Below, piece by piece: positions 48,912-64,000 of a DNA stretch of 64,000 nt; position 1 is the stretch's first letter, and the number at the start of each line of letters is the position of its first letter. This stretch comes from an uncultured bacterium (GTDB taxonomy: Bacteria; Pseudomonadota; Gammaproteobacteria; Burkholderiales; CAIKXV01): contig CAIQON010000108.1 in assembly GCA_903873475.1 (NCBI GenBank), positions 1,064 through 65,063 on the forward strand, read 5' to 3'. Made by a program: the position numbers and the translations under genes. The notes beneath the pieces were generated by a model. That model ran no database searches and was not told the DNA's origin. It saw only the letters and a list, made by a program, of their open reading frames with translations.

Positions 48912-50294
<1,383 letters not shown>

Positions 50295-50316
50295 GGTCAG
50301 GGCTTCGGCCTGATCA

Positions 50317-50853
50317 TCAGGATGCCCTCACCCGGAACAGCACCTGTCCATACTCGACCAGGGCGGCATCCTGCACGCAGATCTCGGTGATCACGCCGGC
50401 AAGACCCGCATGCACGGCGTTGAACATCTTCATCGCCTCGACCAGCCCGACCGTGCTCTCCGGGCCGACCGTCGAACCGATCGACACATACGGGGCAGCG
50501 CCCGGCTCCGACTGCGAGTAGAAGCGGCCGATCATCGGCGACACGATGGCGACCGTGCCGTCGTCGGGCCGTGCGGCAGCGGCAGCAGCCGGGGTGGCCG
50601 TCGCGGGCGCCGGGGAGGACCCGGCAGCCGCTGCAGGCGGTGCTGCAGCAACGCTCGACACGATGGCCGGCGGCGGCGCGCTGGCCACGGCCGCTGCAGC
50701 CGGCGCAAGGCCTTGTCCACCCTTTGCCAGCGTGAGCTTCAGGTCCCCGAACTCGAGTTGCAGGTAATCGAACGTCGAGGCGTTCAGGGTTTCGATGAGG
50801 CGGCTGATCTGCCGGACTTCGTCTTCGCTCAGCGGTACGTCTTGTTCGGCCAC
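50317..50853 (-). CDS. Biotin carboxyl carrier protein
   Basis: Ala/Pro-rich linker and the biotinylation motif VEAMKMFN (Lys codon 50428-50430). GTG start after AGGAG. Confidence 0.85.
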   Translation of the reverse strand: MAEQDVPLSEDEVRQISRLIETLNASTFDYLQLEFGDLKLTLAKGGQGLAPAAAAVASAPPPAIVSSVAAAPPAAAAGSSPAPATATPAAAAAARPDDGTVAIVSPMIGRFYSQSEPGAAPYVSIGSTVGPESTVGLVEAMKMFNAVHAGLAGVITEICVQDAALVEYGQVLFRVRAS

Positions 50854-50880
50854 GCGATTGCTCCTGGAGTTCGGTTCATG

Positions 50881-51573
50881 TCACTGCTGCAGCTTCGCGC
50901 CGTTGGCGGCCGTCTCCGGCACTTCCATCTCGCGGAAGTCCGGCGCCACGATCAGCACCGCTTCCGTCTTCGCCTGCACCGCCGCAGGATCGAATCCGGG
51001 CATCGCCTCGCGCAGCACCAGTCCGTCAGCGGTGACGTCGACGATCGCGATATCGGTGTAGATGCGCTTCACGCAGCGACGGGCGGTCAGCGGCGCGGTG
51101 CACGTCTTCACGATCTTCGGCTTGCCCTTGTTCGTGACATGGGACATCGCGATCAGGATGTTGGGGGCGCCGACCGCGAGATCCATTGCGCCGCCCACGC
51201 CGGGCACGGCTTCGCCCGGCACCTTCCAGTTGGCGAAGTCGCCGTTCTGCGCCACCTCGATCGCACCCAGCACCGCGTGGGTCAGGTGGCCACCGCGCAT
51301 CATCGCGAACGAGATCTGCTGGTCGAAGATCGCGGCGCCGAGCGCCAGGGTGCAGAAGCCCTTGCCTGCGCTGATCAGGTCGAGGTCGATGTCGTCGCCC
51401 TTCGGCACGGGGCCGACGCCCAGGATGCCGTTCTCGCTGTGGAGAAAGATCTCCTGGGTGCGGTCGAGGTAGTTCGAGACCAGCACCGGGATGCCGACGC
51501 CGAGGTTCACGTAGGCGCCTTCGTGCAGGTCGCGCGCGATGCGCCAGGCGATGCCGTCACGGGTGAGGATCAT
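50881..51573 (-). CDS. 3-oxoacid CoA-transferase subunit B
   Basis: ...GAYVNLGVGIP...LHSENGILG...GGAMDL.... ATGA overlap with subunit A. Confidence 0.9.
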   Translation of the reverse strand: MILTRDGIAWRIARDLHEGAYVNLGVGIPVLVSNYLDRTQEIFLHSENGILGVGPVPKGDDIDLDLISAGKGFCTLALGAAIFDQQISFAMMRGGHLTHAVLGAIEVAQNGDFANWKVPGEAVPGVGGAMDLAVGAPNILIAMSHVTNKGKPKIVKTCTAPLTARRCVKRIYTDIAIVDVTADGLVLREAMPGFDPAAVQAKTEAVLIVAPDFREMEVPETAANGAKLQQ

Positions 51574-52274
51574 GAATGGCCTCCCGGTTTTGGCAGCTTG
51601 ATCAGTTCGGGGTGGCGTTCGACCTGTACGACATGGTCGACGAAGATGCCGGGGGTGTGCACGTGTTCGGGATGGATCTCGCCTGCCGGCACGATGCGAT
51701 CGACTTCCGCGATCACCGTATCGCAGGCCGTGGCCATCACCATGTTGAAGTTGCGCATCGTGCCGCGATACATCAGGTTGCCGAAGCGGTCGCCGAGGTG
51801 GCCCTTGAGCAGCGCGAAGTCCGCGCGCAGCGCCTTCGCGAACAGATACTCGCGCCCGTCGATCTCGCGCACTTCGCCGCCCTCCGCGAGTTCGGTGCCC
51901 ACGCCGGTCGGGGTGTAGAAGCCGCCCAGGCCGCAGCCGCCGCAACGGATGCGCTCCACCAGCGTCCCCTGCGGCACGAGTTCGAGTGCGACCTCGCCCT
52001 TGAGGTAGCGCTCACGGAACTGCGCAGCCGACGGCGCGGGAAAAGAGGCGATCAGCTTGCGCGCGAGCCCGTCGCCAAACAGCGATCCGAGCGCGAACGG
52101 GCCGGTACCGGCGCCATTGCTCACGATGGTGAGATCGCGCGCACCGTGTTCGCGCAGGGCCTCGATCAGTTGCCCGGGCATGCCGGCATTGCCGAAGCCG
52201 CCGAACATGATCGTCGCGCCGTCGAACACCTTCTCTACGGCCTCCCTGCACGTGGAGAGCGTCTTGTCGATCAA
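51570..52274 (-). CDS. 3-oxoacid CoA-transferase subunit A
   Basis: ...DGATIMFGGFGNAGMPGQLIEAL...LTIVSNGAG...ELVPQGTLVERIR.... TTG start at 52274 preceded by GGAGGA (no in-frame ATG near the conserved N-terminus). Confidence 0.85.
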   Translation of the reverse strand: MIDKTLSTCREAVEKVFDGATIMFGGFGNAGMPGQLIEALREHGARDLTIVSNGAGTGPFALGSLFGDGLARKLIASFPAPSAAQFRERYLKGEVALELVPQGTLVERIRCGGCGLGGFYTPTGVGTELAEGGEVREIDGREYLFAKALRADFALLKGHLGDRFGNLMYRGTMRNFNMVMATACDTVIAEVDRIVPAGEIHPEHVHTPGIFVDHVVQVERHPELIKLPKPGGHS

Positions 52275-52317
52275 CCCTGTCCTCCGATCCCGGTGGTGTT
52301 GCGCTGGCGGAACATGC

Positions 52318-52347
52318 TTGACAAGAACCGCGCGCGATGCCGAATAT
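52318..52347 (+). promoter_or_regulatory. Candidate sigma70-type promoter in the divergent intergenic region
   Basis: TTGACA (52318-52323), 18-nt spacer, GAATAT (52342-52347), about 150 nt upstream of the Bug ATG at 52496. Pattern match only. Confidence 0.25.
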
Positions 52348-52495
52348 GCCACCGACCGCGTGCTGCATTCGTGCCGATTGCTGCCGAAGCCCGAGTTTGC
52401 CATCTTCGGGCCATCGGGTGATTGCCTCGCGGGAAATTCGTGATCACAGCAGGTTGCGTCTCCGCCGCCGCATGCAGGTCCATCCGAGGGCTACC

Positions 52496-53540
52496 ATGAA
52501 CATCGATCGCACCGGTTCAATCGTTCCCAGCCATCCAGGCCGGGCCCGGGACGGGTTCCCGCAGCGCACGCTCGCCCTGGCAGCCAGCCTCGCGACCGGC
52601 CTGGCGCTGACCATGGCTGCACCGGACGGCATCGCCCAGGGCGCAGCCGCATACCCGGTGAAGCCAGTCACGCTGATCCTCCCCTACGCACCGGGCGGCA
52701 CCATCGACATCCAGGGACGCCTGCTCGCATCCGGCCTCAGCGCCCGCCTCGGCCAATCCTTCATCGCCCGCAACATGCCGGGTGCCACCGGCGCGATCGC
52801 GACCGAGTACGTGGCGCGATCGGCACCGGACGGCTATACGCTGCTGTTCGGCTCGTCCGCACAGACCACCAGCGTGCCGATGACCGACAAGGTCAACTAC
52901 CGACTGGAGGATCTGGTGCCGGTCAGCGCGTCTGGCCGGGGCGCGATGGTACTCGCCATCAGCTCGCAACTGCCGTCGAAGACGCTCAAGGAGTTCATCG
53001 AACACGCGCGCGCGGTGCCGGGCAAGCTCAACTACGGCTCCCCGGGCGAAGGCTCCGTCGGCCACCTGGTTGCTGCGCTGTTCGTCGCGCGCGCAGGACT
53101 CAGCGTCGTGCACGTGCCGTACAAGGGCGGTGGTCCGGCGATGGCCGACCTGCTGGGCGGCCAGATTCCCATGCTCTTCGGAAACTCCGGCGAAGTCATG
53201 GCGAACGCCAAGAGCGACCGTATCCGCATCATCGCGGTGTCGACCGCTCAGCGCATGCGGCAACTGCCCAACATCCCGACCGTCGCCGAGTTCCTGCCGG
53301 GTTTCGAGATGACCGCATGGCAGGGGTACGCTCGCACCGGCGCGCACGCCGCGCGCGATCGTGGAAACGCTGTCGAACGCCATCCAGGCGCTGTCGAAGG
53401 AACCGGCCGTGATCGAACGCCTGGAACAGTTCGGAGTCGAATCGACCACGACCACGCCCGAACAGATGGCGGCGATCATCCGCGCCGAGCAACCGGTGTA
53501 CGCGGAAGCCGTGAAAGCGGCCGGCCTGGGCGGCCGCTGA
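52496..53540 (+). pseudogene. Bug/TctC-family gene with a +1 frame change at 53324-53330 (G4 run)
   Basis: The frame gives ...AYPVKPVTLILPYAPGGTID...FEMTAWQG, then junk. The +1 frame continues with TLAPARTPRAIVETLSNAIQALSKEPAVIERLEQFGVESTTTTPEQMAAIIRAEQPVYAEAVKAAGLGGR and stops at 53538-53540. Confidence 0.7.
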
Positions 53541-53597
53541 TGCCGCGTGTCGGCGGCTGCGAAGGGATGGAGGCGCTGCTTCGGCTGCTGCCAGCCG

Positions 53598-53634
53598 GGG
53601 CGCTGGCGCACGCAAACGGCACAGGCCAGCGCCC
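53598..53634. terminator. GC hairpin between convergent genes
   Basis: GGGCGCTGGC (53598-53607) / GCCAGCGCCC (53625-53634), a 10-bp stem with a 17-nt loop. It abuts the stop of the minus-strand kinase gene. No U-tract. Confidence 0.3.
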
Positions 53635-54246
53635 TCAAGCGCGAGCCGAAAGCGCCTTCACCACCTGCCGGGCCACGACCTCCGGGCCGGCGAGCCCGTC
53701 CACCACGATATCGGCGCCGGGCCGGACCCTTTCCCGCTGCACCCGAAGCAGCGCCTCCACGCCTTCCAGATAGTTCGCCAGGTACTCGCGCAGCCACGGT
53801 GCCAACGACGCCGGTGGCCCGTCGAATGTCGCCACCAGCTGCCGAACCTTGCGTGCGAGCGCGATATCGAGCGGTGTGTCGATCCATACCAGGGTGTCGA
53901 TGTACCGACCGGACTCGGCGTGCCATCGGCCGAAGGGCGTCTCGAAGATCACGTGTTGGCGCGGCGCGAGCTGCGCTCCCGTGAGCGGGTCCTGCACGGC
54001 ATGGCCCGCCTTCAGTCGGGCCAGCGCCTGCGAAAGTCCAGGCACGCGCAGCCGCTCGGGATCGGCGCCCGACAGCATCCAGTCGCAGGCCTCGGCAAGC
54101 GGCCGCTCGGTCATCTCCTCGAAGTGATCGAACGCGAGTACGTCGCGCTCGCCGAGCGCCTGCGCCAGCGCCTGCACCAGCGTGGACTTTCCGCCGCCCA
54201 CACCCGAGGCAACCGCGATCACCCGACGCGCTGCAATGTCACTCAC
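53635..54246 (-). CDS. P-loop kinase (uridine kinase/PRK-like NTPase)
   Basis: Walker A VIAVASGVGGGKST and later ...DTLVWIDTPLDIALARKV.... GTG at 54246 overlaps the upstream stop by 8 nt; the upstream part of the track ORF is Arg/Ser-rich and unlikely to be coding. Confidence 0.6.
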   Translation of the reverse strand: MSDIAARRVIAVASGVGGGKSTLVQALAQALGERDVLAFDHFEEMTERPLAEACDWMLSGADPERLRVPGLSQALARLKAGHAVQDPLTGAQLAPRQHVIFETPFGRWHAESGRYIDTLVWIDTPLDIALARKVRQLVATFDGPPASLAPWLREYLANYLEGVEALLRVQRERVRPGADIVVDGLAGPEVVARQVVKALSARA

Positions 54247-55033
54247 GTGCGGCACCGGCGCCGTCGAGGTAGAACGTCGCGAACGCCGCCCCACTTCGGC
54301 TGCGACCGCCCGAGACATGCCCGAGGCAGGCCTCCCGTGCCCCGCCGTAGAAACCGTCGAATGCGGCCGGCGGCACGCGGAAGTACGACAGGAGCCCCCG
54401 CAACTGCGGCTCGACATCGCGCAGATGGAGACCGGACGGATGGACGTTGAGGTCGAAGGACGCGCGCGGGTTGCCGTCCTCGCAGACCTCGAGATACATC
54501 AGCGGCTCCGGGCTGCGCGCCGCAGCCAGCGCCGCCACATCCATCAACAGGGCCGCCCCGCGCGCGTCGCAGAGTCGGCCGATGCGTTCCCCTATCGCTG
54601 CGGCGTTCACGCCGGGCAGATAGCGATAGCGCGCAATGGCCTGGCGACCGGGATCCGCCGGAGACCACTTCCACGCCAGATGCAGCAGGACCGGGCCGGT
54701 CGCCAAGTCGATGCGCCTCGCATACTCCAGATAGACCTTGAACAGCAGGCCATCGGGGCCTGCCTCGTAACCGAAGTGCACGATATCGGCCTGCAGCGCA
54801 TGCCGCTCGAACGCCGTACGTTCGGCATCCGGGAACCCGATCGCCCGAAAGACAGCACTCAACCAGGCGGTATCGACGACCGCCAGGGAAATCCCCGCCA
54901 GCAGACGCTCGCCGATCAGTTGGCCGGGCGCCAGCTTGAAGGATCGCTCCACTCCCTGCAGCGGCGCCGCGCGCAGGAACTCGATCAGCGGCGCGGTGCC
55001 GACCGGAACTACCGCTGGAAGCGTACCGTGCAC
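54239..55033 (-). CDS. Hypothetical protein (264 aa), repeated beta-hairpin-like segments
   Basis: Good GC3 coding signal. Recurrent strand-turn-strand-like segments (IVHFGYEAGPDGLLFKVYLEY; VLLHLAWKWSPADPGRQAIARYRYL; LMYLEVCEDGNPRASFDLNVH; LGHVSGGRSRSGAAFATFYLDG). I recognised no family. The GTG start overlaps the upstream gene by 25 nt. Confidence 0.5.
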   Translation of the reverse strand: MHGTLPAVVPVGTAPLIEFLRAAPLQGVERSFKLAPGQLIGERLLAGISLAVVDTAWLSAVFRAIGFPDAERTAFERHALQADIVHFGYEAGPDGLLFKVYLEYARRIDLATGPVLLHLAWKWSPADPGRQAIARYRYLPGVNAAAIGERIGRLCDARGAALLMDVAALAAARSPEPLMYLEVCEDGNPRASFDLNVHPSGLHLRDVEPQLRGLLSYFRVPPAAFDGFYGGAREACLGHVSGGRSRSGAAFATFYLDGAGAARE

Positions 55034-55821
55034 TTGATTCCAGCGGGGATGCGTCCTTCGGAATTCGCCAGATGCAGGCGCACGCCGAACGTGCCGCTGG
55101 CCGCGTCGACCACCCTGTCCACGACCACCACGTTCGCGCGATAGCTGCCCGGCAACTGCGAGCCGAACCGTACGTCGCCGGACATCCCCACCCGGATCCG
55201 CCCGAGCAGTTCCACCGGCGCAATCACCTCGACGTTGAGCGGGTCGATCCGCGCGATCTTGACGATCCTGCCATCACCCACGCGCTCGCCCGGCGCGAGC
55301 ATGCGCTCCACCACCACGCCGTTCACGGGGCTGCGGATGGTCCTCTGCTCGAGCACCTGGCGCTGCTGTGCGAGTTCGAGGCCGGCGAGGCGCATCTGGG
55401 TCTCGAGCTCATCCCTTTCGCTGGCGGAAATGAGCTGATTCTTGAACAGTTCCTCGCTGCGCTCCACCCTGCGCCTGGCGAACTCCTCCTGTGCGGTCTT
55501 GAGCCGGACGCTGGCCTCTTCAACCTTCGAGTGAAGCCGCGCGATCTCCTGGCCCTGGGTGACCACGCTGCCCCGCTCGACCAGCACCTCGTGCAGCGTA
55601 CCCTCCACCGGGCTGCCCAGGCTGGTGATCAGGCTGGGCTCGACCATGCACTCCATGGCATCGCCCAGCTGGCGACCGGTGTTCCCGCTCAGCGCAGGGA
55701 GCCGTGCCGGGAGTGCCGGCGCCTCGAGTCGCAGGGGCATGCCGCCCGGCGGCGGCGTCTGCGCGAACGCTGCGCCAACCGACAGCGCAACGATCAGCAG
55801 ATACGGAAGGGGTTGGACCAT
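55009..55821 (-). CDS. Short secreted membrane-fusion protein (HlyD/RND-adaptor-like)
   Basis: Signal peptide MVQPLPYLLIVALSVGAAFA. Lipoyl-like hairpin ...GTLHEVLVERGSVVTQGQEIARL..., coiled coil, ...IRSPVNGVVVERML.PGE... and a beta-barrel tail. ATG at 55821 after GGAG. Confidence 0.7.
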   Translation of the reverse strand: MVQPLPYLLIVALSVGAAFAQTPPPGGMPLRLEAPALPARLPALSGNTGRQLGDAMECMVEPSLITSLGSPVEGTLHEVLVERGSVVTQGQEIARLHSKVEEASVRLKTAQEEFARRRVERSEELFKNQLISASERDELETQMRLAGLELAQQRQVLEQRTIRSPVNGVVVERMLAPGERVGDGRIVKIARIDPLNVEVIAPVELLGRIRVGMSGDVRFGSQLPGSYRANVVVVDRVVDAASGTFGVRLHLANSEGRIPAGIKCTVRFQR

Positions 55822-55859
55822 GCTGGATACTCCACGAAAAGAGGCCGTGCCCGGACTGA

Positions 55860-57851
55860 TCATTCCGGCTGGCCGGTAAAGGACAGGATTGTCTTCGCCT
55901 GCCGGTCCGCCTGCAGCAACTGGCGGCGCACCTTCGAGTGCATGCCCTCCGTGCGCCGCTGGGCGAAGCGGATCCAGGCTCGCCGCAGCAGCTGCCCGAC
56001 ATCCGAGCGTTCGGGCACGCACCGGACCAGCCATTCCACGGGCCCGCCACGATAGGGTTCCAACAGTGGATCCTCCATCGACAGCACAGCCTCGAAATGA
56101 CCGGCGTCTCCCTGGCGCGAGCAGCGCCCCGCCAGCTGCCGGTCGATGCGACCCGCCTCGTGGCGCTCCGAGAGGATGATATGCAGCCCGCCGCTGTCGC
56201 CCACCCCCGGCGCAAGCTTGATGTCCGTACCCCGCCCCGCCATGTTCGTGGCTATGGTAATGCAGCCCGGCTCTCCCGCGCGGGCGACGATCGCCGCCTC
56301 CTCTTCATCCTGCTTCGCGTTGAGTACCTGGTGGGCGAGGCCCCTCTCGGCGAGCAGCGCACTGGCCCGCTCAGAAGACGCCACCGAGCGCGTTCCGAGC
56401 AGCACCGGCACACGGCTGGCATGCAGTACGGCGACCCGCTCCGCGATCTGGCGCCACTTCGCATCCTCGGTCTCGAGGACACGATCGGCACGCCGGACCC
56501 GCCTGCTCGGGCGATGCGTGGGCACGCGTACGACCGGCAGGTTGTAGACCGATCCGAGTTCGCCGGCCACCTCCGCCGCGGTGCCCGTCATTCCGCCCAG
56601 GTGAAGGTAGCGGCGGAAGAAGCGCTGGTAACTGATGCGTGCCAGGGATTCCTTGCGCGGCGTGATCTCCACGCCCTCCTTGGACTCGATCAGCTGGTGC
56701 AGCCCCTGGCTCCAGGACCGATCGGCCATGACCCGACCGGTGTGCTCGTCGACGACCTGGATCTTGCCCTCCCGGATCACGTAATGATCGTCCAGCAGGA
56801 ACAGATGCAGCGCAGAGAGCGCTTGCCTGACCAGTTCCTCGCGCCTCAGCGCGCCAGCCCATACGCCACCCATCGCCTTGCACAGGTCGATCACCCGTCC
56901 GTGTCCCGCTTCGGTAAGGGCGATCCGACGCTCGGACTTGAGGATGACGAAATGCTCGCCAGGGGAGAGCTGGCGCGCGATCCCGAGCGCCTGAGTCGCG
57001 ACGAGCGCCTCATCGGCGGCGGGAACCTCCGCTGAAATGATCAGCGGCGTGCGCGCCTCGTCGACCAGCACGCTGTCGGCTTCGTCGACGATGGCGAAGT
57101 GCAGTCCCTGCAACAGCAGCTTGCGGCGCCTCGCATGCTCGCCATAGGCCTTGTCGAGCTGCAGGTGAAGCGGATAGCCTCCCTTGGCCAGCATGAGCCG
57201 GTCGCGCAGGTAGTCGAACACCAGCGTCTTGTTGCTGCAGTAGACGACGTCGTGCGCGTACGCGGCGCGGCGCGCGTCGGGGTTCATCTCGATCGTCACG
57301 TATGCAACCCGGATACCCAGCACCTCGTAGAGCGGGCGCAGTGTCTTGAAATCGCGCTCGACCAGGTAATCGTTCACCGTGATGACATGGACCGGGATGC
57401 CCGCCAGGGCAGCGGTGCAGGCAGCCAGCGTGGCCGTCAGGGTCTTGCCCTCGCCGGTCTGCATCTCGGCCACCATGCCGTTGAGCATGATCCAGGCGCC
57501 CCTGAGCTGGACGTCGAAATGACGCATGCCGAGCGTCTGATCTGCCGCCTCCCGTACCAGGGCGAACGCACATGCGGCAAGCGCCTCGGTGAGACCCTCC
57601 CGCCGCAGGCGCAACCGGAGCTCACGCGCCTCGGCCGCCAACTGGACCGGATCGTGGTGACGATAGCGGTCACCCACTGCGGCGACCTTCGCAACGATAC
57701 GGTTCCCGCCTGCTGCGCGCGCACGCAGCGCCCGCAGGACACGGCCGGTAGCCGCCTTTCCGGTACGGTCGAGCCAGGTCTCGTCGGTCGCATCAGGCCG
57801 CTCCGGATAGACGTCGTCGAGCAGCGGTGCAGGGATCACGAGGCGCGCCAT
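55860..57851 (-). CDS. SecA-like ATPase, truncated (663 aa; motor domains only)
   Basis: GMRHFDVQL, Walker A MQTGEGKT (57441-57461), VHVITVNDYLVERD, DEADSVLVDEARTPLIIS, GGMTGTA, TNMAGRGTDIKL, GGLHIILSERHEAGRIDRQLAGRCSRQGDAG. The sequence ends about 70 aa after NBD2. Confidence 0.85.
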   Translation of the reverse strand: MARLVIPAPLLDDVYPERPDATDETWLDRTGKAATGRVLRALRARAAGGNRIVAKVAAVGDRYRHHDPVQLAAEARELRLRLRREGLTEALAACAFALVREAADQTLGMRHFDVQLRGAWIMLNGMVAEMQTGEGKTLTATLAACTAALAGIPVHVITVNDYLVERDFKTLRPLYEVLGIRVAYVTIEMNPDARRAAYAHDVVYCSNKTLVFDYLRDRLMLAKGGYPLHLQLDKAYGEHARRRKLLLQGLHFAIVDEADSVLVDEARTPLIISAEVPAADEALVATQALGIARQLSPGEHFVILKSERRIALTEAGHGRVIDLCKAMGGVWAGALRREELVRQALSALHLFLLDDHYVIREGKIQVVDEHTGRVMADRSWSQGLHQLIESKEGVEITPRKESLARISYQRFFRRYLHLGGMTGTAAEVAGELGSVYNLPVVRVPTHRPSRRVRRADRVLETEDAKWRQIAERVAVLHASRVPVLLGTRSVASSERASALLAERGLAHQVLNAKQDEEEAAIVARAGEPGCITIATNMAGRGTDIKLAPGVGDSGGLHIILSERHEAGRIDRQLAGRCSRQGDAGHFEAVLSMEDPLLEPYRGGPVEWLVRCVPERSDVGQLLRRAWIRFAQRRTEGMHSKVRRQLLQADRQAKTILSFTGQPE

Positions 57852-57860
57852 CGGATTCGC

Positions 57861-60011
57861 TCAGACGTTGAATTGCTTGAGGAACGCGCGCCTTAACGCT
57901 CGATACCACTGGGTCGCCAGCGGCTCCGGCAGGTGTTCGAACCGCACATGGATCCGACCGCCCAGGTAATTGGTCTGCTCGCCCCGCGGCAGTTCCAGGT
58001 CGAGCACGAACAGTTTCTCGAGTGCGCGTCCATCGTCGCCCTTCGTCGGGTCCAGCCCGATCTTGCCACCGCCCTGGAGACTCAGTGCGAGGCTGGGTAG
58101 CTCGTTGGTCGCAGCAGGGACCTCGCGCGCGATGCGCGCTTCGAACGGCTGGCCGATCCGCTCCACCGGACGGATCTCCACTCGCCGGGTACGCGTGGCG
58201 ACCTGCGCGCCTTCCGCCGCCGACACCACGACACGTACGGTCTTCGCCGTGCGATCGACCACGTGGGCAAGCAACTCGCCGCGCTGGACGTACCGGCCCG
58301 GCAGGTTGTCCGGATCCTGCATCACGAAAACACCGCTGGTTGGCGCGCGGATGAGCAGTTCCGCCTGCCGGCGGCGCGCCTGCCTGAGTGCTTCGCGCAC
58401 GTGCTCGCGCTGCTCGTCGATCAGTTCCACCTGCACCCGATTGCTCACGCGCGCCAGCTGATGACGCGCATCCAGTTCCGCGAGTTGCGCCTGCAGAACG
58501 CGGGTACGGGCTTCCAATTCCGGATCATGGCACTCGATCAGTGGCTGTCCTGCGACGACCGGTTGCTCCGGCTTCACCAGGACACGTCCGACCACGCCGT
58601 CGATCGCGGCGCGCACATGCGCCTGCTCCGGAGCCCAGATCACCCCTTCCGCGCGTGTCGATGAAGGCGCGGGCACCCATGCCACGATGCCCACGATGCC
58701 TGCCAGCATCACGCCGGTGACGAACAGCGCTCGCGGGCGCTTGCCGGCGATCCGGGGGTTGAAGAAAAGATAGTGGATCTTCTTGCCGATCGGGATGACC
58801 AGCATGCTTGCGACCGCCCAGAGCGCGAGCACGACCCCGATAAAGAAGAACTGCGTTGCGACCAGCACGGCGATCGAAACCATCATGCCGATGCGGTAGA
58901 AGAAGGAAAGCACCGCATAGCCGGCGAGCCAGCCTCGCTCGGCGTCCGTCTCCGCAGGCGATGCGTCCCCCTGCACGCCGAACAGGTAGCGGCGAACAAG
59001 GTAGCCGAGATAGTCGTTGGCACGCTGGCCGAGGTTGGGCGATTCGATCCAGTCGGCCAGGATGTAATAGCCGTCGAACCGCAGCAGCGGGTTCGCGTTG
59101 AACAGGATCGTGGTGATGCCCGCGATCAGGATGATGTTATAGATGACCGCCCGGGTAAATCCGGGTTCGAGATTGATCCAGACGAACACCGCCAGCGATG
59201 CGAGGAACAGCTCCACCAGCATGCCTGCCGCGCCCACGAGCATTCGACTCCGCTTGTCGCGGAAGGCCGTGGCAGCCGAGGCATCGACGTACGGGATGGG
59301 GACCAGCACCAGCAGCATGACGCCCATCTCGTGCACTTCCCCACCGCCCGCCTTGATGGCCACCGCATGGCCCAGTTCGTGCAGCAGCTTGATCAGCGGG
59401 AAGACGACCCAGGCGAGCAGCAGGTTCTCCAGGGTGAACACGCGATCGACGACATCGCTAGACAGTTCCTTCCAGTGCATTCCCACCAGGATCGCCGCGC
59501 TGGTCGCAACCGCGAGCCAGAGCAGGGCTCCAGGCCAGCCCATGAGCGGCCGCAGGAACGGCATCGCCCGGTCCAGGAACCGGTCCGGATCAACCAGCGG
59601 GAACCGGATCGACAGCGGATTGCCGACGTACTGCTTGAGCTTCGTGCGCCGGTGCCGCAGCCGGCGCTCCTCGCGTTCCCGCGCATCCGGAGACGCGTCG
59701 CCCTGCAGCGCATCGGCTGCGTGCAGGTCGGACATCAGCTTGATGACCTCGTCCTGCGACGGCGCCGCCTCACCGAGCCGGGCGCAGGCGATGTTCCAGA
59801 TGTCCTGGAGCGTACGCTGGCCATCCATCAGCCCGATGACCAGGTTGGCGACCGGCGTGAACCGATGGAACTTGCCGGTCGAGTGATTCTGCATCACGTA
59901 CCACACCGCCTGGCGATAGACATGACGGTGGATCTGCGCATGACTGCGCAACCGCGGCCTGAGCGTCGCCACGCGATACCAGGAATCGCTGAACAGGGAT
60001 ATCGACTGCAT
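57861..60011 (-). CDS. Three-part fusion: PqqD/RRE-like N-domain, M50 (site-2 protease-like) membrane metalloprotease, C-terminal HlyD-like domain
   Basis: HELGH at 59367-59381 and NANPLLRFDGYY (the second S2P motif) within multiple hydrophobic spans. N-terminal ...WYVMQNHSTGKFHRFTPVANLVIGLMDGQRTLQDIWNIA...QDEVIKLMSDLHAADAL is PqqD-like. The C-terminus carries ...IDGVVGRVLVKPEQPVVAGQPLIE... plus coiled-coil HlyD features. Confidence 0.8.
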   Translation of the reverse strand: MQSISLFSDSWYRVATLRPRLRSHAQIHRHVYRQAVWYVMQNHSTGKFHRFTPVANLVIGLMDGQRTLQDIWNIACARLGEAAPSQDEVIKLMSDLHAADALQGDASPDAREREERRLRHRRTKLKQYVGNPLSIRFPLVDPDRFLDRAMPFLRPLMGWPGALLWLAVATSAAILVGMHWKELSSDVVDRVFTLENLLLAWVVFPLIKLLHELGHAVAIKAGGGEVHEMGVMLLVLVPIPYVDASAATAFRDKRSRMLVGAAGMLVELFLASLAVFVWINLEPGFTRAVIYNIILIAGITTILFNANPLLRFDGYYILADWIESPNLGQRANDYLGYLVRRYLFGVQGDASPAETDAERGWLAGYAVLSFFYRIGMMVSIAVLVATQFFFIGVVLALWAVASMLVIPIGKKIHYLFFNPRIAGKRPRALFVTGVMLAGIVGIVAWVPAPSSTRAEGVIWAPEQAHVRAAIDGVVGRVLVKPEQPVVAGQPLIECHDPELEARTRVLQAQLAELDARHQLARVSNRVQVELIDEQREHVREALRQARRRQAELLIRAPTSGVFVMQDPDNLPGRYVQRGELLAHVVDRTAKTVRVVVSAAEGAQVATRTRRVEIRPVERIGQPFEARIAREVPAATNELPSLALSLQGGGKIGLDPTKGDDGRALEKLFVLDLELPRGEQTNYLGGRIHVRFEHLPEPLATQWYRALRRAFLKQFNV

Positions 60012-60024
60012 GGCTATGCGCGCT

Positions 60025-61866
60025 TCACGCCCAGGACCACACGGCCAGACGCAGCCAGTCGAAGAACCGGTGGGTGATCATCCAGAACAGGCTGCGCCGT
60101 CCTGCCTCGATCTTCGCCACGCCCTCCATCCCGGGTCGCAGCCGATCGGAACGCTGCTCGAGCAGCGCCTCCACGCGGAAATAGCTCCGGCCTTCCCGCG
60201 AGGTCACCACGGGCGTCACGGTGCTGATGACAAACGGATACACCTCCCCGGGCAGCGAGCTGAGCAGCAACCGTCCCTTCTGCCCGGCACGCACATTGCC
60301 GATCGCGGTCTCCGGCACTTCGAGCACGACGCGGTAGCCGTCGAGCGGCGACACCTCGAAAAGCACCTGGCCGCGCTTGACCGCCGCGCCGAGCGACTGG
60401 TGCAGGTCGCCGCTGACCACGACGCCGTGGAATGGCGAGACGATATGCGTGCGCTGCAGTTGCTCCGCGAGCAGGCTGACCTGCGCCTCGGCTTGCTGTA
60501 CCTGCGCGAGGATGATGCTGGCCAGCGCGCGGTCATACTTGGCAACCGCCTCCTGGTACTGGCGCGTGTATTGAGTGCGCTGGCTCTGCCATTTGTAGTA
60601 TTCGAGCCGCAGGTCCCGCTGATCCAGCGTCGCGAGCACGTTGCCCGCTTTCACGACGTCCCCCGCGCGATGCGTCGCAGTTGCCACGTAGCCATCGATC
60701 GGTGCGATGAGCACGCGGCGCACCGAGCCCTCGAGGGATGCCTGCGCGCCTACCCGGTGGTTGCCGGTTGCCAGGCTGAAGAACACGACCAGTGCGATCA
60801 GCGAAAGGGCCACGAGCTTGCGTCCGAAATACTTCGGCCCGATGAGCTTCGTGAGTTGCTCTCGGGAAGCGTCCCGGAAACGGCTCAGGAAGTGTCTGTC
60901 GTTGAGGCGTTTGGCCTCGAGGATGCGGCTGGTCAGCGCCACCGTCGCCTGGCAGAGCTCGATGGTGGACGCATCGAACGGTCGACTGGCGGGACGCTCG
61001 AGGGTGAAGGCCCCACCGCGTCGCTCGTCCGGCTGGAACGGAATCGTGAGGATGCTGCCGCTGCCGAACTGGCGGGCAAGCGCATCGTGGTCGCGCGTGA
61101 CCAGCGGCGCGCCCGTACCTGCAGGCACGACGATGATCGATCTCTGGTCCAGTGCCTCATCCATCGCCATTCCGATGGCGCGGGTAAGGTTCATCCTCTG
61201 GCCGAATTCCGCGCTGTGCGAGACCGCGGCAACGTCCACATGGCCATTCTTCTGGAACCCGATGCTGACCCGGTCGCAATCGAGCCGTACTGCCAGGTCC
61301 GTCGCGAGCGCGTTCGCCGCCGCCGGGAAACGCTCCTCCGCGAGCGAGGTGGCCAGCAGGTCCAGCGTACTCATCAGCCTTTCGCGCGTCGCCTGTTCTT
61401 CCTCCGACTGAGCGGCTCGCAGCGATGCTTCGATCGCGTAAAGCGCCCAGGACAAGCGCGGCACGAGCGCCTGCACCGCGGCCGCCTCCCGAGGCTCGAA
61501 CTCGACGGCCACGAGACCGTGCAACTGGCCATCGATCATCAGCGGACAACTCACGCATGCGCCGTCCGGACGGGACGATACGATGCTGCGGCGTCCTTCG
61601 AGCGTACGCGTGGCGACATCGGCCAGCAGCTCGCTCGGCCCCTGGCCCGCCGGCCAGAACGCCGCGGGCGAGAACGGGCCTGCGTCAGGGGCGCCCAGGA
61701 GCAGTACCGCGCGCCGAGCCTCGGGCAGCGAGGCACAGCACGACGCGAGCCAGTCGCGCTGGAACGCTTCGGGACTGGCGCCGGGTGCCGTGGCCTGCAT
61801 CCCGGTCGCGGTGCTCGCGGTGACGGTCTCGGTCATGGCACGCGGACCGCCCGGCTCAACGGTCAA
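60025..61866 (-). CDS. Cytoplasmic GAF-like region, single TM span, periplasmic HlyD-type membrane-fusion domain
   Basis: TM span LVALSLIALVVFFSLA. Downstream ...IDGYVATATHRAGDVVKAGNVLATLD..., coiled coil, ...IVSPFHGVV... (HlyD). The ~330-aa N-terminal part has two GAF-like blocks (...PLMIDGQLHGLVAVEF...; ...SILTIPFQPDERRGGAFTLER...). TTG start overlaps the upstream stop (TTGA); alternative ATG at 61836. Confidence 0.7.
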   Translation of the reverse strand: MTVEPGGPRAMTETVTASTATGMQATAPGASPEAFQRDWLASCCASLPEARRAVLLLGAPDAGPFSPAAFWPAGQGPSELLADVATRTLEGRRSIVSSRPDGACVSCPLMIDGQLHGLVAVEFEPREAAAVQALVPRLSWALYAIEASLRAAQSEEEQATRERLMSTLDLLATSLAEERFPAAANALATDLAVRLDCDRVSIGFQKNGHVDVAAVSHSAEFGQRMNLTRAIGMAMDEALDQRSIIVVPAGTGAPLVTRDHDALARQFGSGSILTIPFQPDERRGGAFTLERPASRPFDASTIELCQATVALTSRILEAKRLNDRHFLSRFRDASREQLTKLIGPKYFGRKLVALSLIALVVFFSLATGNHRVGAQASLEGSVRRVLIAPIDGYVATATHRAGDVVKAGNVLATLDQRDLRLEYYKWQSQRTQYTRQYQEAVAKYDRALASIILAQVQQAEAQVSLLAEQLQRTHIVSPFHGVVVSGDLHQSLGAAVKRGQVLFEVSPLDGYRVVLEVPETAIGNVRAGQKGRLLLSSLPGEVYPFVISTVTPVVTSREGRSYFRVEALLEQRSDRLRPGMEGVAKIEAGRRSLFWMITHRFFDWLRLAVWSWA

Positions 61867-62213
61867 GCATCCGTCTTCAATTCACCGAAACGGGACTCAT
61901 ACTCCTTGAGTACCCGCTCCAGGAGAACGCCGAGGCGCTTGGCCGCATGGGGATTGAGTACGATCCGGTCGGACAGCATGACCTTGACTTCTTTCTGACC
62001 TGCGTGCCACGCCTGATTCGCCCCGAACAGCAGAGTGATTTCCTCGCGCGATCCAAGGACATTGCAGACGTTGGAATAGGAGGTCTCCATTCGCGAATCG
62101 TCCCAGATGATTCGCTGAGGATCGCCGCTGCGCGTATTCGTGTCCGGGGTATTGTCTTCGCCGCTCGCTGAGACACTCGCTGAGGGAGTCCTGCTCATCG
62201 CGATTCCTGTCAT
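61863..62213 (-). CDS. Small DUF3467-like protein
   Basis: ...ETSYSNVCNVLGSREEITLLFG... resembles the YxN..v..t.eEf.LdFG core I recall for DUF3467. Visibly more A/T-rich than its surroundings. Start ATG at 62213 or 62198. Confidence 0.5.
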   Translation of the reverse strand: MTGIAMSRTPSASVSASGEDNTPDTNTRSGDPQRIIWDDSRMETSYSNVCNVLGSREEITLLFGANQAWHAGQKEVKVMLSDRIVLNPHAAKRLGVLLERVLKEYESRFGELKTDA

Positions 62214-62347
62214 CGATAGGGTTGGTCTGATGGCACCGCGCGTGCAGAGCCAGGTAGCACTGTCTTATATCCTAATCCCACCGGTCGATCGCGCCCGCGG
62301 AACGGGCGACAGCGGCGCGAACAGCGGCAGTCTCGATCTGCGTGGCG

Positions 62348-64000
62348 TCAGCCCGCACGCGGGTCTTTGGCCCAGTCGATGCGCGGGGAGGCCTGCAGCG
62401 CGTGCCGGATGTCCACGGTATCGACGGTGACCGGCAAGCCTCTGGTTCCGTCCATCCAATGGCCCGCGGTCGATTCGATGGCGCCCGGCGCAAGCCCGGG
62501 CGCAGCCATCCCGGGACGGACTTGCCGACGGCGCTCCAGCATGACACGGCCGTCAGCCGTGAACCAGACACCCTTGCTGCCCGCGCCAAGCACTTGCGCT
62601 CCCAACAGCCCGGCGAGCGCGAGTTCATGCGACTGCTCATCCCGCACCGGAGCCACCTCTCGCCCGACGCTCGACCAGTCGACACGCACGGCCGGGCCGG
62701 ATTCCGGCAGTGAACGCAAGAAGGCTGCAATCTCGGCGGATTCTGTCAGTGCCGCGGCGTCGGCTGGCGACGGGCTGCCAGCTGCCTCGCCGGCCGGTTG
62801 CTGCACGCCCCCCTCGGGTGGCACCCCGCCCGGCGGCGACGACGACGGCGACGGCGGCGGAGTCGTGGGTGCCTGGTCCGGTCCCATGGTGGACGCGGCC
62901 GGAGGCGCACTGTCCGCGCCGAACCGTGGCGCATCGGAGAACTGGAAGCCGAGGATCGTGGGCATCACCGCCGTCGATGACCCGTCAGTCGCATACAGGC
63001 GGCGCGTATCGCTCGCCGCGTCTCCGATCAGGATGTCGGCCGGTCGAGAGACGTTGGGCATTTCCCGGACGATGTTCTCGACGCGCTCGATGAACTCATC
63101 TTCGTTCGAATCCGCGGGCAGGTCGGCACCCGCCCCGTGGAAACGGATCACCTGCTCCACGCGGCTATCGGGCTTGAAGTACACCACCAGATAGTCGCCG
63201 GCCATGATGTCGAAATCCAGGTTCCCGTACAGCAGGTCGTCGTCAGGACCGCCGATGACCACGTTGTAGCCACCGCCCCCCGACACGACATCCTGAGAGC
63301 CGATGGTCATGTCGATGGACTCGACCTGGGACGGACGCGCACCGGTCGGGAAGTAGAACACACGGCCGCTGTCGCCGATGACCAGGTCATCATCGCCTTC
63401 GCCCCAGAGACGATCGCTTTCGTAGCCACCGATCAGGATGTCGTTGCCGTCGCCTGCGAACACCACGTCGCGGCCGCCCAGTCGCGGGAAGGACGACGAG
63501 ACGAGCTGCGGGTCTCCGGACACGCCATTGAAGGTCGCAAACGCATTGTCACCGACGATCACGTCGCGCCCTGCACCGGTGACGACCGAATCGTCGCCCA
63601 TGCCACCGAAGACGAGCGAATCGCCGCCGGCGGCGCTGATACGATCGTCTCCGCCGTACCCGATCTCGGTGGTCTCCACGAACTGGAGGATGCCCGACCC
63701 GCTGTAGTCGAGGAAGCCGTTGTCGGCCAGCACGACGTGCGTTCCCGTGCCCAGGCGCACCTCGTCGCTTCCGATACCGGCGACGACGGTCTTCGAGCCA
63801 TCGCCCGCGACGATGATGTCGTCACCACCCTCGAGCCTCACCGTGCTGGTGATGGCATCGAGGAAGCGGCCAGTCGGATCCCGCAGGATGATGCCGTTGT
63901 CGCCGAGGATCACATCGGATCCGCTGGAGGTCGTGACGCGATCGGCACCCATGCCCGTGGCGATCAGGTTTTCACCGTTCCCGGCGAAAACGATGTCATC
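62348..64000 (-). CDS. Large repeat protein, RTX/Ca-binding-like Gly-Asp repeats, Pro-rich linker and C-terminal domain; 5' end outside window
   Basis: The frame is open to nt 64000 (...DDIVFAGNGENLIATG precedes the track Met). Many degenerate G-x-G-x-D/GDD-I-x-G units (GGDDIIVAGDGSKTVVAGIGSDEV..., GGMGDDSVVTGAGRDVIVGDN..., GDGNDILIGGYESDRLWGEGDDDLVIGD...). PTTPPPSPSSSPPGGVPPEGG linker, then a ~170-aa non-repeat tail. Confidence 0.7.
   Translation of the reverse strand, partial: DDIVFAGNGENLIATGMGADRVTTSSGSDVILGDNGIILRDPTGRFLDAITSTVRLEGGDDIIVAGDGSKTVVAGIGSDEVRLGTGTHVVLADNGFLDYSGSGILQFVETTEIGYGGDDRISAAGGDSLVFGGMGDDSVVTGAGRDVIVGDNAFATFNGVSGDPQLVSSSFPRLGGRDVVFAGDGNDILIGGYESDRLWGEGDDDLVIGDSGRVFYFPTGARPSQVESIDMTIGSQDVVSGGGGYNVVIGGPDDDLLYGNLDFDIMAGDYLVVYFKPDSRVEQVIRFHGAGADLPADSNEDEFIERVENIVREMPNVSRPADILIGDAASDTRRLYATDGSSTAVMPTILGFQFSDAPRFGADSAPPAASTMGPDQAPTTPPPSPSSSPPGGVPPEGGVQQPAGEAAGSPSPADAAALTESAEIAAFLRSLPESGPAVRVDWSSVGREVAPVRDEQSHELALAGLLGAQVLGAGSKGVWFTADGRVMLERRRQVRPGMAAPGLAPGAIESTAGHWMDGTRGLPVTVDTVDIRHALQASPRIDWAKDPRAG

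Follow-up and report, generated by a model that had tools for sequence, protein, structure and literature searches.

In this study we looked at one gene, and at the operon around it, in a stretch of 64,000 nucleotides from an uncultured bacterium of the Burkholderiales (GenBank contig CAIQON010000108.1, positions 1,064 to 65,063). This whole stretch is called the window below, and positions are counted from its first letter. The gene lies at 57861..60011 on the minus strand, starts with ATG and encodes a 716 amino acid (aa) protein that we call the fusion. It is confirmed here that 57861-60011 encodes a three-part membrane protein, which consists of a peptide-recognition domain, an intramembrane zinc protease and a periplasm-spanning adaptor. 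An earlier note on this DNA had proposed a PqqD/RRE-like domain (RRE, RiPP recognition element; RiPP, peptide made by the ribosome and modified after translation) followed by an M50 protease and a HlyD-like domain, and this architecture is borne out by Pfam, NCBIfam, a family profile and Foldseek. The operon in which the gene lies probably marks an undescribed export route for giant proteins that carry an N-terminal leader of the LEPR-XLL type.

Domains of the fusion protein

The PqqD/RRE-like domain (59709..59966, minus strand) covers residues ~16-101, is supported by profile, Pfam and model, and is predicted to be cytoplasmic. The Pfam PqqD family (PF05402) matches residues 38-100 with E=7e-4 and 20.3 bits, against a gathering score of 23.4, and is found in 48 of 55 close homologues of the fusion with a best E of 1.4e-6. 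A direct search of the PDB with the single sequence, either of the N-domain or of the whole fusion, gave no match, and the family profile alone succeeded. This profile was built from 48 diverse N-domains with 27-61% identity, and its best matches in the PDB are the Xanthomonas campestris PqqD (3g2b, E=9.8e-6), the M. extorquens PqqD (5sxy, E=9.5e-5) and PqqCD (5vrd, E=1.5e-3), followed by the lasso-peptide RRE TfuB1 (6jx3, E=0.14). All four top matches are PqqD/RRE proteins and the alignments span the whole domain. The similarity that had been read from the pattern of the sequence is significant by both the 3g2b match and the Pfam matches in the homologues, and at the sequence level the homology of the N-domain to PqqD/RRE can be taken as established. 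In the AlphaFold2 (AF2) model the N-domain shows strands at residues 25-32, 35-42 and 48-50, then helices at 53-61, 68-82 and 86-96, which is the order of elements in an RRE (three strands followed by three helices). The predicted local distance difference test score (pLDDT) of this part is low (41-72), and the winged helix-turn-helix fold of an RRE is likely for it. RREs bind RiPP leader peptides, which join the sheet as an added strand next to the third one.

The M50 membrane core (58671..59540, minus strand) covers residues ~158-447 and is recognized by the NCBIfam model NF041824 and, in homologues, by the Pfam Peptidase_M50 family. The first catalytic motif, HELGH, is found in residues 211-215 (59367-59381) and the second, NANPLLRFDG, in residues 305-314 (59070-59099). 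The coordinates in the earlier note, which had placed HELGH at 59367-59381 and residues 35-103 at 59703-59909, are exact. Residues H211, E212, H215, N305, N307, P308 and D313 are invariant in 52 aligned sequences, down to 35% identity, which suggests that the fusion is under selection as an active protease. Peptidase_M50 is found in 50 of the 55 close homologues; for the window fusion itself PF02163 was not reported by Pfam at E<=0.01. NF041824, which describes the daptide intramembrane metalloprotease, matches residues 19-404 (E=3e-43) and so takes in both the N-domain and the M50 core, with a score of 148.3 bits against a cut-off of 300. The YydH/LiaK model NF058609 gives a weak match, with 32 bits against a cut-off of 225.

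Hydropathy and the AF2 model together give seven transmembrane helices and a re-entrant β-hairpin at residues 229-242. Such a hairpin is a feature of site-2 proteases. Across the family, the net charge is +4.5 before the first transmembrane helix and +2.0 in the loop at residues 409-424, in agreement with the positive-inside rule, while the short loops that are assigned to the periplasm carry a net negative charge. By this topology the N-terminus is predicted to be inside and the C-terminus outside, so that HExxH, NxxPxxxxD and the RRE would be cytoplasmic and the HlyD part periplasmic. The RRE and the catalytic site are thus predicted to share one side of the membrane, and the earlier note, for which incompatible sides would have been a refutation, is supported on this point.

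The HlyD/membrane-fusion domain (57864..58670, minus strand; residues 448-716) is predicted to be periplasmic. In Pfam, residues 462-629 score above the cut-offs of both HlyD_D23 (35.7 bits against 30) and HlyD_3 (35.5 against 22.2). In Foldseek, ~270 residues in the C-terminal part of the model match MexA, MacA and AcrA with E of ~1e-11, and the model contains a helical hairpin at residues 497-550. The assignment of this part as HlyD-like, with lipoyl, β-barrel and α-hairpin domains, stands on these three results. The α-hairpin of known adaptors contacts TolC-type channels.

The operon around the fusion gene

All genes of the operon are on the minus strand, and the description below follows them from the presumed cargo downwards. 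The first one (62348..64000) is the C-terminal part, 550 codons, of a protein with RTX repeats (HemolysinCabind, E=1e-14), which is the presumed cargo. Its frame is open to base 64000, and the listed 534-aa open reading frame (ORF), with a start at 63952, belongs to the 3' part of a much larger gene that is cut by the window end; in a near-identical GenBank contig the repeat gene reaches the contig end as an 888-aa fragment. It is followed by a DUF3467 protein of 111-116 aa (61863..62213; PF11950, E=1e-22). Both neighbours had been named in the earlier note and both hold. Between DUF3467 and the fusion there is a gene (60025..61866) for a GAF-transmembrane-HlyD protein (GAF, E=1.4e-8; HlyD_3, E=8e-20; RND_mfp, 101.7 bits and above its cut-off), hereafter GAF-HlyD. 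It has one hydrophobic segment, a transmembrane helix at residues 351-369, and its GAF region is predicted to be cytoplasmic and its membrane-fusion domain periplasmic.

Downstream of the fusion lies a gene (55860..57851) for a truncated SecA-like ATPase of 663 aa, with SecA_DEAD (E=9e-98), SecA_PP_bind (E=5e-24) and P-loop_SecA (E=2e-49) matches. The protein keeps the first nucleotide-binding domain, the preprotein cross-linking domain and the second nucleotide-binding domain, and its motifs GEGKT133, DEAD256 and GRGTD539 are intact. It is below all NCBIfam SecA/SecA2 cut-offs (best 576 bits against 814) and aligns only to residues 26-601 of the ~840 residues of Bacillus subtilis SecA. Because the alignment ends at residue 601 and the scores are sub-threshold, we read the protein as a SecA-like motor without the SecY-engaging helical wing and two-helix finger; the C-terminal tail is also missing.

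The next gene (55009..55821) encodes a small HlyD adaptor, 270 aa from an internal ATG (HlyD_D23, E=5e-18; RND_mfp, 108.5 bits and above its cut-off), with an N-terminal hydrophobic segment that may be a signal or an anchor; its homologues are called at 270-290 aa. Its gene is overlapped by 25 bases by the start of a last gene (54239..55033), which encodes a 264-aa protein without family match. From the cargo to this last gene the intergenic distances are 149, 26, 13, 9, 38 and -25 bases. Three HlyD-family adaptors are therefore encoded in the operon, namely GAF-HlyD, the fusion and the small HlyD. Within the operon bounds in the window there is no TolC gene, no RND (resistance-nodulation-division), ABC (ATP-binding cassette) or MFS (major facilitator superfamily) transporter and no sigma or anti-sigma gene.

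Gene context in relatives

The gene context was analyzed in a set of 80 genome loci, and the counts below use those with enough flanking sequence. GAF-HlyD is found directly upstream of the fusion in all 68 loci, and the SecA-like gene directly downstream in 64 of the 68. In 32 of 55 loci the upstream flank is filled by an ORF that runs for 1,500 aa or more without a stop. Where contigs are long, gene calling gives upstream genes of 9,292 and 15,258 aa, and in relatives with the same gene order the genes at the cargo position range from 8,847 to 15,258 aa.

Further examples come from annotated plasmids. In the plasmid of Methylosinus sp. C49 (pMSC49a) a cargo of 8,847 aa is followed by DUF3467, GAF-HlyD, the fusion, the SecA-like gene, a HlyD gene and a TolC gene. 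The Pontibrevibacter and Pseudosulfitobacter plasmids encode cargos of 10,603 aa and 12,737 aa, respectively, and then the gene order of the window. In the Thalassospira marina plasmid a 4,033-aa cargo is followed by DUF3467, HlyD, the fusion, HlyD and TolC, without a SecA-like gene. A more distant system lies on the Escherichia coli plasmid NZ_CP081687.1 (L090/L091, 44829-64580) and consists of a 4,459-aa Ig-like protein, TolC, two HlyD proteins and a 710-aa M50-HlyD protein, again without a SecA-like gene. This E. coli/Citrobacter relative shares 27.6% identity with the fusion over residues 133-655, is mostly found on IncF plasmids and occurs in 24 of 5,426 complete E. coli genomes.

TolC-family (OEP) genes directly after the small HlyD gene are found in three Nitrospira loci (L011, 15026-16447; L033; L049) and in the Methylosinus (L086, 24984-26411) and Thalassospira (L089, 23075-24487) plasmids. 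An ABC transporter is encoded neither in the window operon nor in those operons of relatives that were inspected.

The LEPR-XLL leader

Most of the adjacent giant or large proteins with a readable N-terminus carry a K/R-rich leader with the motif LEPRxLLSAD. The NCBIfam model NF012209 ('LEPR-8K', LEPR-XLL domain) is above its cut-off on all four neighbouring cargo N-termini that were tested, and a hidden Markov model of the leader matches Thalassospira as well as 11 genome loci. Three plasmid operons have the gene order of the window (Methylosinus, 8,847 aa; Pseudosulfitobacter, 12,737 aa; Pontibrevibacter, 10,603 aa), and direct translation of their cargo genes gives the motifs TLEPRVLLNAD, TFEPRVLLSAD and PMEPRVLLSAD. 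Two plasmid cargos, those of Thalassospira and Pontibrevibacter, are labelled 'LEPR-XLL domain-containing protein' by PGAP. The cargo of the E. coli IncF-type system has the variant ALESRQLFDGA, an LExRxLF-type N-terminus, which is followed by a DUF4347-like region.

In one subtype of the family the large protein is encoded downstream, and there the LEPR-XLL leader is found in 8 of 8 loci. It consists of a K/R-rich stretch and the motif (L/I)xE(A/E)LEPRxL(F/L)SAD, after which come an acidic linker and a DUF4347 domain. The four loci without a detectable SecA-like gene (L073, L076, L080 and L081) all belong to this downstream-cargo subtype, other members of which (e.g., L031, L037, L052 and L078) do have one.

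In the window the N-terminus of the cargo is cut off, and the question of its leader was answered indirectly, from the annotated plasmid records. Homologues of the window cargo in the protein database are fragments of at most 1,530 aa, none of which has the LEPR motif, and the best contig for the cargo N-terminus holds a frameshift-split giant gene that extends past the 10-kb flank.

A possible export route for LEPR-XLL giants

The earlier note had suggested that a leader-binding module on an intramembrane protease, fused to a periplasm-spanning adaptor, implies coupled recognition, cleavage and export of a substrate. With the LEPR-XLL giants encoded next to the fusion, this idea gains a candidate substrate. 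We suggest that the fusion is the leader-recognizing and leader-cleaving adaptor subunit of a dedicated envelope-spanning exporter, which works without an ABC transporter and is meant for LEPR-XLL giants that are secreted or displayed at the surface, and we give this a probability of roughly 55%. The suggestion brings together the domains of the fusion, the synteny, the LEPR-XLL neighbours and the precedent of the daptide protease. In such a mechanism the LEPR-XLL leader would be bound by the RRE while still in the cytoplasm, as happens between RREs and RiPP leaders, and the SecA-like motor, which has the ATPase core and the preprotein clamp and has lost the parts that dock to SecY, would feed the unfolded polypeptide into a conduit. 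The conduit would be composed of the membrane domain of the M50 part together with all three HlyD-family adaptors and an outer-membrane channel of the TolC type, and the leader would be cut off by the M50 site on the cytoplasmic side. This would couple recognition and cleavage to export, in a way similar to peptidase-containing ABC exporters and their double-glycine leaders.

Several points weigh against this mechanism. The leader of the window's own cargo is deduced from relatives, whose fusions are 41-46% identical, and its actual N-terminus lies beyond the end of the window and of the contig. In about 40% of the loci the 10 kb upstream are without a giant ORF. The SecA-like gene is missing from 4 of the 68 loci, from the Thalassospira plasmid and from the E. 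coli plasmid system, and so the energy source is not universal within the operon. To our knowledge, site-2 proteases are not known as translocases. C-terminal RTX repeats, such as those of the cargo, signal ABC-dependent, C-terminus-first export in classical type I secretion, and an ABC transporter may be encoded elsewhere in the genome. Finally, the mean pLDDT of the AF2 model of the fusion is 74, and its N-domain has values of 41-72 per 10-residue block.

It is tempting to go one step further and to see here a new class of secretion system in diderm bacteria, in which an RRE-guided site-2 protease-adaptor replaces the ABC transporter of type I secretion. Such a class would use two more adaptors, a TolC-type channel and usually a SecA-like ATPase, and would act on proteins of 4,000 to >15,000 aa with a cleavable LEPR-XLL leader. 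We put this wider claim forward tentatively, as a possibility that is more doubtful than not.

The RTX repeats can also be read in another way. The giant protein may be exported C-terminus-first, either through the adaptor/TolC assembly or through a classical ABC-type type I system whose genes lie elsewhere, while the RRE holds the leader in the cytoplasm so that the adhesin stays threaded through the envelope, until a GAF-controlled cleavage by the M50 site frees it, comparable to LapA/LapG/LapD. N-terminal retention of this kind is established for LapA-type type I adhesins. A switch between retention and release would give a place to the RTX repeats at the C-terminus of the cargo, to the cytoplasmic GAF domain that the neighbouring adaptor has in all 68 loci, to the predicted cytoplasmic side of both RRE and protease active site and to the several operons that lack the SecA-like motor. 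Yet no operon inspected has an ABC transporter, LapG/LapD-like genes are not present, and a near-universal SecA-like ATPase with a preprotein clamp suits active translocation better. We consider retention and release unlikely, though it is the chief alternative to export of the giants by the fusion and its partners.

The presence of an RRE raises the question of whether the giant protein is a mere bystander and the fusion trims and exports a small peptide, which could be DUF3467 or an unannotated ORF. RiPP pathways typically contain RREs, no named family is closer to the fusion than the daptide protease, and some relatives have radical S-adenosylmethionine (SAM), methyltransferase and WelO5-like oxygenase genes just downstream. 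However, the scores are far below the models of both peptide proteases (148 bits against 300 for the daptide model and 32 against 225 for YydH/LiaK), daptide enzymes are missing, and neither the window nor the majority of loci has the tailoring genes. The intergenic gaps are too short for a hidden precursor, except for the 149-bp gap after the cargo, and DUF3467, which has a folded-looking core instead of a hypervariable core peptide, is found in only a part of the loci (at least 26 of 65). The link to LEPR-XLL giants is far more consistent, and maturation of a RiPP-type peptide is improbable. It is still less credible that the NCBI name 'efflux RND transporter periplasmic adaptor subunit' is correct, or that the protein is a generic anti-sigma-cleaving site-2 protease with an incidental fusion, since, although the HlyD fold is real, the operon has no gene for an RND, ABC or MFS transporter or for a sigma or anti-sigma factor, and the three-domain layout kept end to end to ~36% identity, together with catalytic residues invariant in the 52 sequences, points to a selected combined function. 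Both of these roles, RiPP-type maturation and efflux adaptor, fit the data poorly.

LEPR-XLL proteins are among the largest bacterial proteins; the NCBI model has the nickname 'LEPR-8K', and the examples seen here have 4,033-12,737 aa. The motif is now tied to a conserved machine in which an RRE and a protease of the leader-removing type are combined with a scaffold across the envelope and an ATPase that is a candidate for translocation, and by this the purpose of LEPR-XLL and the export route of the giants become testable. If export by the fusion and its partners is true, RRE domains reach beyond small-peptide natural products into protein secretion, and site-2 proteases and SecA-like motors gain a new role. 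The family is found in cultured and tractable bacteria, and the IncF-type relative of E. coli is a possible laboratory model.

Comparison with known systems

The system that is closest to the first part of the fusion is the daptide protease MpaP/DapP (NF041824), in which an RRE is fused N-terminally to an intramembrane site-2 protease that removes the leader in an RRE-dependent way (bioRxiv 10.1101/2023.03.08.531785). The order of an N-terminal RRE and then an M50 membrane protease is the same, with homology over residues 19-404, and the first two-thirds of the architecture is of an already known kind. Unlike MpaP, whose description has no C-terminal HlyD domain, the fusion is below the cut-off of the daptide model (148 against 300 bits). 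MpaP comes from Gram-positive bacteria (Microbacterium and staphylococci), whereas the fusion family is diderm and its presumed substrate has thousands of residues. None of the genes of a daptide context, namely the DUF-RRE protein MpaB, a dehydrogenase, an aminotransferase, a methyltransferase and short precursors that end in Thr, is found in the window operon.

The type I systems for RTX adhesins (HlyBD-TolC, LapBCE and SiiCDF) share with our operon the HlyD adaptors with an α-hairpin and a giant RTX cargo, and in several relatives also a TolC-family gene within the operon; SapC, which occurs in some relatives, is common to the Campylobacter sap type I operon. They differ in that they use one adaptor, where three different ones are found here, and in the ABC transporter, which is absent from the operons inspected. 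Type I systems have no counterpart to the conserved LEPR-XLL leader, the intramembrane protease or the SecA-like ATPase. Peptidase-containing ABC transporters, such as CvaB with CvaA and TolC, also join a leader-recognizing protease to an exporter, which in diderms works with a HlyD-type adaptor and TolC, and so couple leader removal to export, a likeness that is one of analogy only. Their protease is a C39 cysteine protease instead of M50, recognition is by the protease domain instead of an RRE, and an ABC cassette stands where the SecA-like protein is the candidate here. With the epipeptide proteases YydH/LiaK (NF058609) the fusion shares the M50 catalytic core, but these have neither RRE nor HlyD domains and a different genetic context.

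With respect to SecA and SecA2, the SecA-like neighbour has the DEAD motor, the preprotein cross-linking domain and the second nucleotide-binding domain with intact motifs, but is below the cut-off of every model, and an interaction with SecYEG has no support. Giant proteins of Omnitrophota and Actinobacteria were found to contain divergent SecA DEAD and preprotein-binding domains without scaffold and wing, and it was proposed that they help to export their own giant protein (bioRxiv 10.1101/2023.11.21.568195). The SecA-like protein in our operon is encoded by a separate gene and is not a domain of the giant. That preprint does not mention an M50 fusion or LEPR-XLL, and it fits the theme of non-canonical export of giant proteins.

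Size, spread and names of the family

An exhaustive search gives at least 4,445 homologues of the fusion, as representatives of 50%-identity clusters, at E<=1e-30. Among the best 150 cluster representatives, 142 are near full length (690-745 aa) and align essentially end to end, down to 36% identity, and the remaining 8 look fragmentary. A word-indexed protein search gives at least 7,971 matches, the top ones mostly of ~711-718 aa, and in a scan of one genome per species at least 563 genomes have a relative of the fusion. The carriers span lineages of the Beta-, Gamma-, Alpha- and Deltaproteobacteria type, Nitrospira and Myxococcota. Cultured carriers include Achromobacter piechaudii, Azotobacter beijerinckii, Methylobacterium aquaticum and Marinobacterium mangrovicola, and a Pseudomonas strain and rhizobial plasmids are also among the carriers.

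The earlier note had regarded the tripartite fusion as an architecture that is not described. This does not hold for the RRE-protease part, which is known from the daptide MpaP, nor for the family as such, which is large and catalogued, but it does hold for the function and the system context. For the HlyD-fused form of the RRE-M50 protein no paper was found, in a literature search that left out most subscription journals, and within the same limits no functional description was found for DUF3467, DUF4347 or LEPR-XLL, nor any account of the way in which LEPR-XLL proteins are exported. What is undescribed, as far as this search goes, is the HlyD extension, the gene context and the function, and not the existence of the family.

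The fusion is named in databases as 'putative peptide zinc metalloprotease protein', 'efflux RND transporter periplasmic adaptor subunit', 'biotin/lipoyl-binding protein', 'PqqD family peptide modification chaperone' or 'hypothetical protein', and JGI names the family after the KEGG yydH entry. In RefSeq, the SecA-like gene of the Methylosinus plasmid (L086, 22213-24129) is labelled 'prepilin peptidase', and in other records such genes appear as 'DEAD/DEAH box helicase' or 'translocase'. The automatic names of both genes are inconsistent and mostly misleading, and a wrong name seems to be borne by thousands of the entries called 'prepilin peptidase', 'biotin/lipoyl-binding protein' or 'efflux RND transporter periplasmic adaptor subunit'.

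With regard to the assemblies, window positions 50001-64000 are 96-99% identical to JAPLQJ010000255.1 (L003), which carries an identical 716-aa fusion. There are 101 mismatches in 7.9 kb between the two, and an indel alters the C-terminus of the SecA-like protein, so that the window must stem from a closely related strain or assembly. In a close relative, L092 (ENA contig_52272), several ORFs take the place of each of three genes, those for the giant protein, the fusion and the SecA-like protein, and these splits are most likely the result of frameshift errors in a long-read assembly and not pseudogenes.

Accessory genes

At least 26 of 65 loci have DUF3467 on the upstream side of GAF-HlyD (tblastn, E<=1e-5). 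An alignment of 20 operon-linked copies shows a variable N-terminal tail and a highly conserved core of ~80 aa. A profile search of the PDB for a solved relative gave chance-level matches only, and the AF2 model has a pLDDT of 59.5. The idea of a SecB-like chaperone is not supported, since the PDB matches are at chance level and a Foldseek search with this weak model gave no match with E<0.5. A leader-bearing precursor was rejected, because of the conserved core, the low-complexity variable tails and the absence of a LEPR motif. As far as can be judged from its conservation, DUF3467 resembles a folded, conserved accessory more than it does a leader-bearing cargo.

SapC is an uncharacterized protein, known originally from the sap type I operon of Campylobacter. 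Genes of the SapC family (PF07277) are found in 13 loci (e.g., L015, 6959-7777), where they replace or adjoin DUF3467 or sit between the fusion and the SecA-like gene. In the betaproteobacterial loci L001 (15566-18400) and L002 (16467-20780) the operon is followed by genes for methyltransferases, radical-SAM proteins (some of them B12-binding) and WelO5-like 2-oxoglutarate oxygenases, none of which is found in the window or in most loci. In these two loci such tailoring genes hint at post-translational modification, possibly of the cargo.

A role in anti-phage defence was also considered and rejected. In PADLOC, no match at E<=1e-3 was found for the fusion, GAF-HlyD, DUF3467, the SecA-like protein, the 264-aa protein or the kinase-like protein described below. 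The small HlyD gave a marginal match to an 'Unknown' model (E=9e-4), and the PHROGs gave nothing useful.

The 264-aa protein has no match in Pfam, NCBIfam, PHROG or PADLOC, and homologues at the same position are found in few relatives (L002 and L055); it is possibly a lineage-specific accessory. After the operon there is a gene for a P-loop nucleoside-kinase-like protein (NF006085, E=5e-26, below the cut-off), and the region 53635-55033 on the minus strand holds both of these small genes. The kinase-like gene is kept at the same position in few relatives, namely L001, L002 and L044.

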